Source: Bacteroidota bacterium (lineage in GTDB: Bacteria > Bacteroidota > Bacteroidia > M30B66). From it: 29,584 nt of DNA. A model generated the notes under the pieces. It saw only the letters and a list, made by a program, of their open reading frames with translations, was not told the origin of the DNA and searched no databases. Both the position numbers and the translations under genes were made by a program. The stretch is taken from NCBI GenBank assembly GCA_020438185.1, contig JAGQVC010000001.1, forward strand, positions 1 through 29,584, read 5' to 3'. Shown here in pieces: positions 22,064 through 29,584 of this stretch; the stretch's first letter is position 1, and every line of letters begins with the position of its first letter.

Positions 22064-22147
22064 CGGTGATTCTTTTTATATCGTAATTGTTGTTATTCCC
22101 TTTAAAGCAGTATGATCAAGTGACAAAGCCTGCTATTTTGGGGACGG

Positions 22148-22177
22148 CAAAGATAGTAAGTTGTTTTTTAATTCCAA
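22148..22177 (-). promoter_or_regulatory. Bacteroidota sigma-A promoter upstream of rplP (TTG-N19-TATCTTTG)
   Basis: Exact TAnnTTTG at 22155-22148 with TTG at 22177-22175 (19-nt spacer), in the rpsC-rplP gap. Confidence 0.7.
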
Positions 22178-22283
22178 CAGCCTGAAACAAAAAAAATTAA
22201 GACGTTTTTTAAGGCTAAGCTAACCGGAATCCAAACATCTGACTGTCAGCGTTCTGTGACAATAAATTATAAATCAAAAAATC

Positions 22284-22311
22284 AAAAAAAAGGGAGGCAA
22301 AAGCCTCCCTT
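22284..22311 (-). terminator. Intrinsic terminator after rpsC
   Basis: Minus strand reads AGGGAGGC-TTTT-GCCTCCCT followed by 7 T; perfect 8-bp stem. Confidence 0.88.
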
Positions 22312-22328
22312 AAAATTTGTTATTAATT

Positions 22329-26554: not shown

Positions 26555-28678
26555 TTATACAGATGCTGTTTTTCCTTTTGATTTAGCGATTACTTCTTCT
26601 GCAACCTGACGAGGGGCTTCAGAATAATGTGAAGGCTCCATGGTTGAAGTTGCACGCCCTGAAGAAATAGTACGAAGTGTGGTAACATAACCGAACATTT
26701 CACTCAAAGGAACTTTGGCTTTAATCACCTGCGCTCCTCCTCGACTATCCATTCCTTCAAGCTGACCGCGACGTTTGTTAAGGTCACCAATAATATCTCC
26801 CATGTATTCTTCCGGAGTAACTACCTCAACTTTCATGATTGGCTCAAGCAGGATAGGACGTGCTTTAGGCAAAGCTTCGCGGAATGCTGCTTTCGCGCAG
26901 ACTTCGAATGATAATGAATCAGAGTCAACTGCGTGGTAAGAACCATCAGAAAGTGTAACTTTAAGACTATCGAGAGTAAATCCGGCAAGTACACCATTCT
27001 GCATTGCTGTTTTGAATCCTTTCTCAACAGATGGAATGTATTCACGTGGAATGTTACCCCCAACAACTTCATTAACGAACTGAAGCCCTTCCTTACCTTC
27101 ATCAGCAGGTCCGATAGTAACAACGATGTCGGCAAACTTACCGCGACCGCCCGTCTGTTTCTTGTAAACCTCGCGATGAGTAACAGTACCGGTAATTGCT
27201 TCTTTGTAATTAACCTGAGGAGCACCCTGGTTACACTCAACTTTAAATTCGCGCTTCAAACGATCGAGAATAATCTCAAGGTGAAGTTCACCCATTCCGC
27301 TGATAATAGTCTGTCCGGAATCTTCGTCTGTTTTAACACGGAAGGTTGGATCCTCTTCAGCAAGTTTACTGAGAGCCATACCTAATTTATCAACGTCGGC
27401 CTGAGTTTTAGGCTCAATTGCAACACCGATAACCGGATCAGGAAACTGCATTGCTTCAAGAACGATTGGGTTCTTTTCGTCACAAAGTGTATCACCTGTT
27501 TTAATATCCTTAAAACCTACAGCAGCTCCAATATCACCTGCTTCGATGTACTCAATAGCATTCTGCTTGTTAGCATGCATCTGGAAAATACGGCTGATAC
27601 GCTCTTTATTGCCACTGCGCGTGTTAAGAACATAAGAGCCCGCATCAAGATGTCCGCTGTAAGCGCGGAAGAAACACAAACGGCCAACAAATGGATCGGT
27701 TGCAATTTTAAAAGCAAGTGCAGTAAACGGACCTTTAGGATCAGGTTTACGTGTAAGTTCCTCACCTGTATCAGGATGTGTTCCTTTGATGTTTTCTCTG
27801 TCAAGAGGACTTGGCATCAACTCCATAACGAGGTCAAGCATAGTCTGAACACCTTTGTTCTTGAAGGATGAACCGCAAACCATCGGAACAATTTTATTGT
27901 CGAGACAAGCCTGACGAAGTGCCCCAAGAATTTCAGCCTCGGAGATAGAATCCGGATCCTCGAAGAATTTCTCCATCAAAGTATCATCGTATTCAGCAAT
28001 TTCTTCAAGAAGCTTCCCTCTCCATTCAGTTGCTTCATCAAGCAAATCATCAGGAATTGGAACAACATTATAAGTCATTCCCTTATCAGCCTCATTCCAC
28101 TCAATACCACGGAAGTTGATCAAATCTACAACTCCACGAAAAGTCTCTTCAGCTCCAATTGGAATCTGAAGCGGAATTGCATTACCGCCAAGAACCTCAC
28201 GAACTTGTTTAACAACGTTCAGGAAGTCAGCACCCTGACGGTCCATTTTATTTACGAAACCAATTCTGGTAACGTTGTAATTATTTGCAAGTCTCCAGTT
28301 TGTTTCTGATTGCGGTTCAACGCCGTCAACAGCAGAAAACAGAAACACCAGACCGTCCAGTACACGAAGTGAACGATTCACTTCCACTGTAAAGTCAACG
28401 TGTCCGGGAGTATCAATGATGTTGATTCGGTGTTGCGGAAGATCGTTCTCAGAGCCTTTCCAGGAACAGGTAGTCGCGGCTGAGGTGATGGTAATTCCAC
28501 GCTCTTGCTCTTGCTCCATGTAGTCCATGGTAGCTGCACCGTCGTGCACTTCACCGATCTTATAGTTTACTCCGGTGTAGTACAAGATACGTTCGGTAGT
28601 AGTGGTCTTACCCGCATCGATGTGCGCCATAATACCGATATTACGAACTCGCTCTAATGGAATTTGTCTTTCAGCCAT
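26555..28678 (-). CDS. fusA: Elongation factor G (apparently chimeric: foreign N-terminus, Bacteroidota body)
   Basis: [38 protein letters not shown]. Composition and sequence style change around 28379-28426. Confidence 0.98.
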
Positions 28679-28895
28679 CGTTCCTTTCCAGACGATTTAC
28701 AAAGGTAAATAAGCAAAAGTAATTTGTGAACCAACACCGACATTCGACCCTTGGGCGCCGAATCCTAAGAGAGGTCACATAAACTCGGATTTTTTGCAGC
28801 AACCTTTTTAAAAGACTCCTGCGATAGAAATTCGAGTCTATCCGAGATCACCCGAATTCGGCACCCAAACGCCGAATGCAGCTCGACAGGTTACA

Positions 28896-28921
28896 GAAAA
28901 ACGCGACCGACGTCGCTTTTC
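28896..28921 (-). terminator. Terminator-like hairpin after rpsG
   Basis: Minus strand reads GAAAA-GCGAC-GTCG-GTCGC-GTTTTTC: a 5-bp GC stem plus 5 T. Confidence 0.4.
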
Positions 28922-28928
28922 GGTAGCC

Positions 28929-29399
28929 CTACCAGCGGTAGTGCGCGAATGCTCGGTTCGCCTCGGCCATACGATGCGTTTCTTCTCGCTTCTTTACCGC
29001 GTTACCACGGTTTTGGCTTGCATCATACAACTCATTCGCGAGGCGTTCTTTCATGTTCTTTTCCGAACGCTCACGGGCGTGCTGAATCAGCCAGCGAATC
29101 GCCAACGTGTCGCGACGGGAAGGACGAACCTCGGTAGGAACTTGGTAGGTTGCTCCGCCGACTCGTCGAGAGCGAACTTCAACCAACGGACGGACATTCT
29201 CGAGTGCCTTGCGGAAAACTTCGATGCCCTCTTCCTTGTAGCGAGTCTGGATAGTGTCGAGTGCTCCGTAGACGATCGACTCGGATACGCTCTTCTTTCC
29301 GCTCCACATCATAGAATTAATGAAACGGCCGACGATTTCATCGTTAAAACGAACGTCGGGCAAAATATCTCGCTTAAATTCGCGTCTTTTTCGCGACAT
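28929..29399 (-). CDS. rpsG: 30S ribosomal protein S7 (non-Bacteroidota type)
   Basis: [30 protein letters not shown]. About 53% GC by hand count. AAGGTG SD-like site 9 nt upstream. Confidence 0.99.
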
Positions 29400-29423
29400 G
29401 GAACTCTACACCTTAGCTAAATT

Positions 29424-29584
29424 TTATTGTTTTGGTTTCTTCGTACCATACTTGGAACGGCTCTGATTTCGCCCAACTACGCCTTGCGTATCAAGCTTAC
29501 CGCGAACGATATGGTAACGAACCCCCGGCAAGTCCTTCACACGACCGCCGCGAATGAGCACCACGGAGTGTTCTTGGAGATTAT
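29424..29584 (-). CDS. rpsL: 30S ribosomal protein S12, 3' part (5' end outside the window)
   Basis: Manual translation: [52 protein letters not shown]. Confidence 0.98.

Follow-up and report, generated by a model that had tools for sequence, protein, structure and literature searches.

Donor-type S7 and S12 genes at the end of a Bacteroidota ribosomal-protein contig: very probably an assembly chimera joined within fusA

How a Bacteroidota ribosomal-protein cluster could come to end in S7 and S12 genes that appear to belong to another phylum is the question raised by this locus. The window, that is, the whole stretch of DNA analysed (29,584 bp), is the entire contig C110, the longest contig of its bin (G000: 439 contigs, 2.1 Mb, GC 0.43, completeness 73%, contamination 2.2%). 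Most of it is a minus-strand Bacteroidota ribosomal-protein cluster, fusA-rpsJ-rplC and onward; in the ORF list, a 265-bp gap is seen at 22064-22328 between rpsC and rplP, inside the S10 operon. The terminal genes matter because a cross-phylum replacement of S12 and S7 together with a mosaic EF-G would, if true, call into question the idea that core translation genes are resistant to transfer. The features of this end of the contig, all on the minus strand, are as follows.

29424-29584, minus strand: rpsL (S12), 3′ part, 52 codons (29427-29582) plus the stop (29424-29426), cut by the contig end; donor (Bdellovibrionota-like) type
29400-29423, minus strand: rpsL-rpsG spacer with a Shine-Dalgarno-like AAGGTG (29414-29409), read directly from the sequence
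28929-29399, minus strand: rpsG (S7), 156 aa; donor type by identity, tree, AU test and GC3 (0.58)
28679-28928, minus strand: rpsG-fusA spacer, 250 nt, with hairpins; donor type
28427-28678, minus strand: fusA codons 1-84; donor type
28376-28426, minus strand: crossover interval, fusA codons 85-101 (17 residues), placed by codon alignment
26555-28375, minus strand: fusA body, native Bacteroidota, with rpsJ directly after; assigned by identity to the same genus and GC3 (0.33)

The terminal S7 contains GGATYQ and has the C-terminus AFAHYRW. The S12 fragment contains RVKDLPG, ends in a 15-residue stretch (...KYGTKKPKQ), and is without the Lys-rich C-terminal tail of the native S12 that is encoded on another contig of the bin, C39. 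AAGGTG lies 9 nt ahead of the rpsG ATG, the GC content of rpsG is 0.527, and 23 of its 24 Arg codons are CGN. The initial annotation, which had assigned rpsG and rpsL to a different phylum from the rest of the cluster, had pointed to the S7 motifs, the S12 end, RVKDLPG, AAGGTG, a GC content of about 53%, and mostly CGN arginine codons, and all of these are present in the sequence; the Bacteroidota S7 signature that it gave for comparison (GGATFQ and ...HFRF) is exactly that of the second S7 of the bin, on C39. Both genes are recognisable members of their families: rpsG scores 233 bits against the NCBIfam model rpsG_bact (cut-off 136), and the rpsL fragment scores 92.6 bits against rpsL_bact over model positions 73-123, a score that misses the whole-protein cut-off only on account of the truncation. 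The composition of the contig end is unusual for the bin. The terminal 1185 bp have a GC content of 0.499, which places them in the top 0.6% of bin windows, and they rank in the top 0.2% for tetranucleotide distance. In the foreign coding parts, GC3 is 0.51-0.58 (0.51 in the 5′ part of fusA, 0.58 in rpsG), compared to 0.28-0.40 in the neighbouring native ribosomal genes. With the SD-like motif also retained, the block is un-ameliorated.

Comparison of the proteins places the terminal genes outside Bacteroidota. The best S7 identity in 30 relatives from the same genus, family, and class is 49-57% (57% to the same-genus genomes), and it does not exceed 63% across 300 Bacteroidota genomes sampled over the phylum; the S7 type of the window is absent from both sets. 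Over the about 330 Bacteroidota genomes together, S7 identity is 50-63%, versus 68-78% to Bdellovibrionota-like sequences. Among species-representative genomes, the closest S7 proteins are those of Bdellovibrionota MAGs (74, 71, and 68%). Two metagenome contigs gave the best S7 matches of the metagenome scan (78% and 75%), and that scan contained no identical or near-identical donor contig. The S12 fragment is 96% identical to the Bdellovibrionota-like loci L008 and L092 versus 88-90% to same-family genomes. A maximum-likelihood tree of 92 S7 sequences groups the window S7 with three Bdellovibrionota MAGs in a seven-row clade (SH-aLRT 97). Forcing S7 into its own family is rejected by the AU test, the lnL being lower by 104 (p-AU 2e-5). 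S7 is a short protein, and only this family-level constraint is rejected: a tree in which it is sister to the whole Bacteroidia set is 29 lnL units worse, which for S7 alone is not significant (p-AU 0.13). The supported clade, the rejection of the own-family placement, and the composition bear out the foreign-phylum origin first proposed for rpsG and rpsL. The accompanying guess at the donor, a former-deltaproteobacterial lineage with Bdellovibrionota among those named, agrees with the identity of the closest S7 proteins. A separate observation concerns the S7 of L080 (Nocardiopsis yanglingensis A18, Scaffold24), whose sequence is the same as in Stenotrophomonas maltophilia and S. geniculata; this scaffold is probably a contaminant in a public actinomycete isolate genome.

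The foreign block does not stop at rpsG. Its limit had been set at 28929, and while the foreign assignment of 28929-29584 stands, this boundary does not, as the spacer of 250 nt and the first 84 codons of fusA are also part of the block, which extends to about 28400. It thus makes up the final ~1.2 kb of C110 (about 28400-29584), at the plus-strand 3′ terminus. Residues 1-96 of EF-G are 84-91% identical to the donor-like loci versus 79-80% to native relatives; for residues 97-707, the identity is 94% to the same genus versus 51-53% to those donor-like loci that have a full-length fusA (L008, L010, L093, and L033). The signatures within residues 1-84 (23 protein letters) and a loop three residues longer before HRIN are of the type found in L008, L010, L092, and L093, unlike same-family genomes, and from a stretch of 21 protein letters onward EF-G is typical of the family. 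The last clear donor-diagnostic codons are 83-84 (His-Arg), and the first clear native-diagnostic codon is 101 (Asn; Glu in the donors). In the codon alignment, no position within 28376-28426 clearly separates the two lineages, and the switch lies inside a conserved EF-G stretch of 13 residues. The join is in frame and the EF-G open reading frame is intact. From 28645 downward, the window has 81% nucleotide identity to the same-genus genome G002, and the EF-G body and S10 of C110 reach 94-98% identity to genomes of the same genus and family, on a par with C39. There is a record of the mosaic EF-G on one contig only, which makes it a singleton; over residues 1-140, it shares 81-88% identity with the next-best proteins. 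For the exact S7, there are records on two contigs (NCBI and ENA sources); the second contig therefore has the S7 without the mosaic EF-G.

The spacer between rpsG and fusA is also of the donor type. It folds with -95.7 kcal/mol (z -6.25), with a terminator-like hairpin right behind the stop codon of rpsG and, at 28742-28877 on the minus strand, a long imperfect hairpin of 136 nt (inverted repeat I1). The corresponding spacer has 133-177 nt in the donor-like loci versus 27 nt on C39 and about 27-30 nt in the native family, and strong hairpins are present in that of L092 and L010. We considered whether the long hairpin could be a perfect fold-back artefact and rejected this, its outer arms being 83% complementary. 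A search for the spacer as a repeat element of the bin found no second copy there. Scanned against Rfam, the foreign block had a single match, below threshold, to the model of a plant microRNA precursor (35 bits versus a gathering score of 136), which we read as reflecting a generic long hairpin. The long spacer hairpin may be a lineage-specific regulatory or repeat element of the Bdellovibrionota-like clade.

Crucial to the evaluation of this end of the contig is C39 (5.6 kb, GC 0.42). Its rpsL is complete and encodes the Lys-rich tail, its rpsG encodes GGATFQ and ...SHFRF, and after a 27-nt spacer fusA begins, of which codons 1-22 are present. The contig breaks off there, within the P-loop, and this fusA start is similar to that of the family. 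Compared with two same-genus genomes, its S7 is 93% identical, its S12 97-98%, and the divergently transcribed helicase upstream 85-89%. The cluster to which the C39 S7 belongs includes contigs of up to 74 kb. In G002, the helicase and rpsL-rpsG-fusA-rpsJ are contiguous and collinear, and the helicase flank of C39 is syntenic with this arrangement. No nucleotide overlap was found between the end of C39 and C110, and the bin has no native sequence for fusA codons 23 to about 90, a stretch that is the part of the gene most conserved across phyla. Judged from these sequences, the true genome order would most likely run from C39 through about 200 nt of missing native fusA into C110 from about 28400 downward.

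The bin contains further foreign pieces of conserved genes. Among the 28 contigs shorter than 1 kb (range C348-C376), 23 are diverged copies, with 50-93% amino acid identity, of genes on longer contigs, and the GC content of these copies spreads over 0.31-0.72 (sd 0.118 versus 0.023 for the longer contigs). Four of the short contigs duplicate the same operon (C372, C355, C361, and C365). The fusA pieces on C372 and C355 are foreign (82% and 69% identity). C372 (558 bp) holds a second, different Bdellovibrionota-like fusA 5′ end including about 180 nt upstream; it has 80% nucleotide identity to the foreign fusA part of the window, and its type is nearest to L018 and L033. At least two Bdellovibrionota-like organisms contributed reads. 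The diverged copies indicate that reads of other community members at conserved genes entered the assembly, which is the condition for contig ends to extend into another genome. We would guess that the bin was re-assembled from recruited reads. Such short debris escapes the marker-based contamination estimate of 2.2%.

In the end, we concluded from the sequences that the end of C110 is very probably an inter-genome assembly chimera and not a xenologous replacement, based on the following: a native copy of the same genes is found on C39, the foreign block is terminal, the junction lies in a universally conserved fusA motif, and no relative or independent assembly has the arrangement. The terminal ~1.2 kb (the rpsL 3′ end, rpsG, the structured spacer, and about 84 fusA codons) would derive from an uncultured Bdellovibrionota-like bacterium in the same sample. 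The assembler would have joined this DNA to the Bacteroidota fusA where the two genomes share the conserved 13-residue EF-G stretch, and the real rpsL-rpsG-fusA start of the Bacteroidota organism would be that on C39. An exact k-mer shared at the junction would be plausible. What is observed here is the change in phylogeny and composition, the place of this change, the native copy on C39, and the scraps of foreign conserved genes; that the join was made by the assembler instead of by recombination in the cell is what we infer. The initial annotation had entertained a real xenologous replacement of S12 and S7 and had named misassembly as the outcome that would speak against it. The native rpsL-rpsG-fusA start on C39, the terminal position of the foreign block, and the absence of the arrangement from relatives speak against the replacement, and the same native copy and terminal block, with the junction in a conserved motif, point to the misassembly.

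Of course, an in-frame join that leaves EF-G intact is also what homologous recombination would be expected to produce, and this counts against an assembly chimera, as does the lack of an unchimeric donor contig among the metagenome matches, the best of which is 78% identical in S7. A real transfer would mean that a Bdellovibrionota-like rpsL-rpsG-fusA′ segment took the place of the native one through homologous recombination; a single crossover, within the conserved fusA motif, would have produced a working mosaic str operon and a mosaic EF-G. The intact open reading frames fit such an event, as does a crossover located where recombination between diverged sequences is most feasible; the donor lineage, moreover, includes predators that meet prey DNA. 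Transfer and xenologous replacement of bacterial ribosomal protein genes are documented, for example for S14. However, the same bin contains a native rpsL-rpsG-fusA start whose divergence from the genus equals that of the rest of C110, the foreign block shows no compositional amelioration, the arrangement was not found in the 330 related genomes searched, and the mosaic EF-G is a singleton. In addition, the contig ends inside the foreign rpsL, so that the second flank is never seen and only one flank is native. We therefore consider a real transfer highly improbable. An equally small chance attaches to its fuller form, in which the junction in the DTPGH-coding stretch is a genuine recombination site, translation would depend on foreign S12 and S7 and on an EF-G that is a cross-phylum mosaic, C39 would belong to a sister strain placed in the same bin, and the donor would possibly be predatory.

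Two other explanations were considered. The organism could have both its native rpsL-rpsG with its own fusA (C39) and an acquired donor-type pair upstream of a second, mosaic fusA; the presence of two S12/S7 pairs in one bin that is only 73% complete is compatible with this. There is, however, a single native-type fusA body in the bin, the other fusA pieces (C372 and C355) being foreign; the relatives have one rpsG followed directly by fusA-rpsJ; and duplicate S12 and S7 occur in no relative searched. Replacement and extra copy alike are disfavoured by the C39 copy, the terminal position, the lack of amelioration, the absence of the S7 type from about 330 genomes, and the singleton mosaic EF-G, and an extra copy seems to us still less credible than a replacement. 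A pure binning error, with all of C110 coming from another organism, might be suspected in a bin that is visibly contaminated with small foreign contigs. Against this, the first 28.4 kb of C110 match the composition of the bin, and its EF-G body and S10 are as close to the same-genus and same-family genomes as C39 is. We reject mis-binning of the whole contig, as the switch is internal to C110, within fusA, and regard this explanation as having next to no probability.

An assembly chimera at the end of C110 also has a parallel in other public records. Further singleton EF-G proteins (P0003, P0004, P0005, P0006, and P0011) have a Bacteroidota body and a different N-terminus, joined at sites of 18 protein letters or at RVLDG, and these joins, too, are located at conserved motifs (23 protein letters). 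Their N-termini look gammaproteobacterial, proteobacterial, or otherwise foreign. This suggests that the 5′ end of fusA is a recurrent hotspot of assembly chimeras in public metagenome data. Our verdict is that the arrangement of the terminal S7 and S12 is not a biological feature, and that its value lies in flagging the quality of this MAG and, in general, of marker genes adjacent to fusA. Despite an estimated contamination of 2.2%, the longest contig of the deposited MAG encodes an S7 and part of an S12 that are foreign as well as an EF-G that is chimeric, and these would distort ribosomal-protein marker trees and taxonomy.

The foreign block itself most resembles the heads of Bdellovibrionota-like str operons (L008 on JAXLVP010000001, L092, L093, and L010). 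It shares with them the order rpsL-rpsG, a long and often hairpin-rich spacer (250 nt here), the fusA N-terminus (16 protein letters), and the longer loop before HRIN, and its S7 is 68-78% identical to those loci. The likeness ends within fusA: in the Bdellovibrionota-like operons, fusA is donor-type throughout and is followed by an EF-Tu-like gene (the second tblastn matches), whereas in the window the sequence continues as Bacteroidota fusA and then rpsJ.

With documented transfers of ribosomal protein genes, the locus has in common that the gene phylogeny is at odds with that of the neighbours. In real transfers of this kind, native DNA borders the foreign gene on either side, a native copy is lacking or clearly paralogous, and related strains have the state in common. 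Where this can be checked at the end of C110, it is otherwise on each count: native DNA lies on one side only, the native copy is present, and related strains do not share the state.

The closer comparison is with the interspecies chimeric contigs of short-read assemblies and MAGs. According to published benchmarks, most near-complete MAGs from short reads contain such contigs, and conserved regions are one cause (bioRxiv 10.64898/2026.10.15.759294). Judged by its sequence, C110 is like them in its abrupt change of lineage and composition, in a junction placed in a conserved stretch, and in a foreign part located at the contig end; like them, too, its bin passes marker-based quality control (2.2% contamination), and the native segment has been assembled separately.
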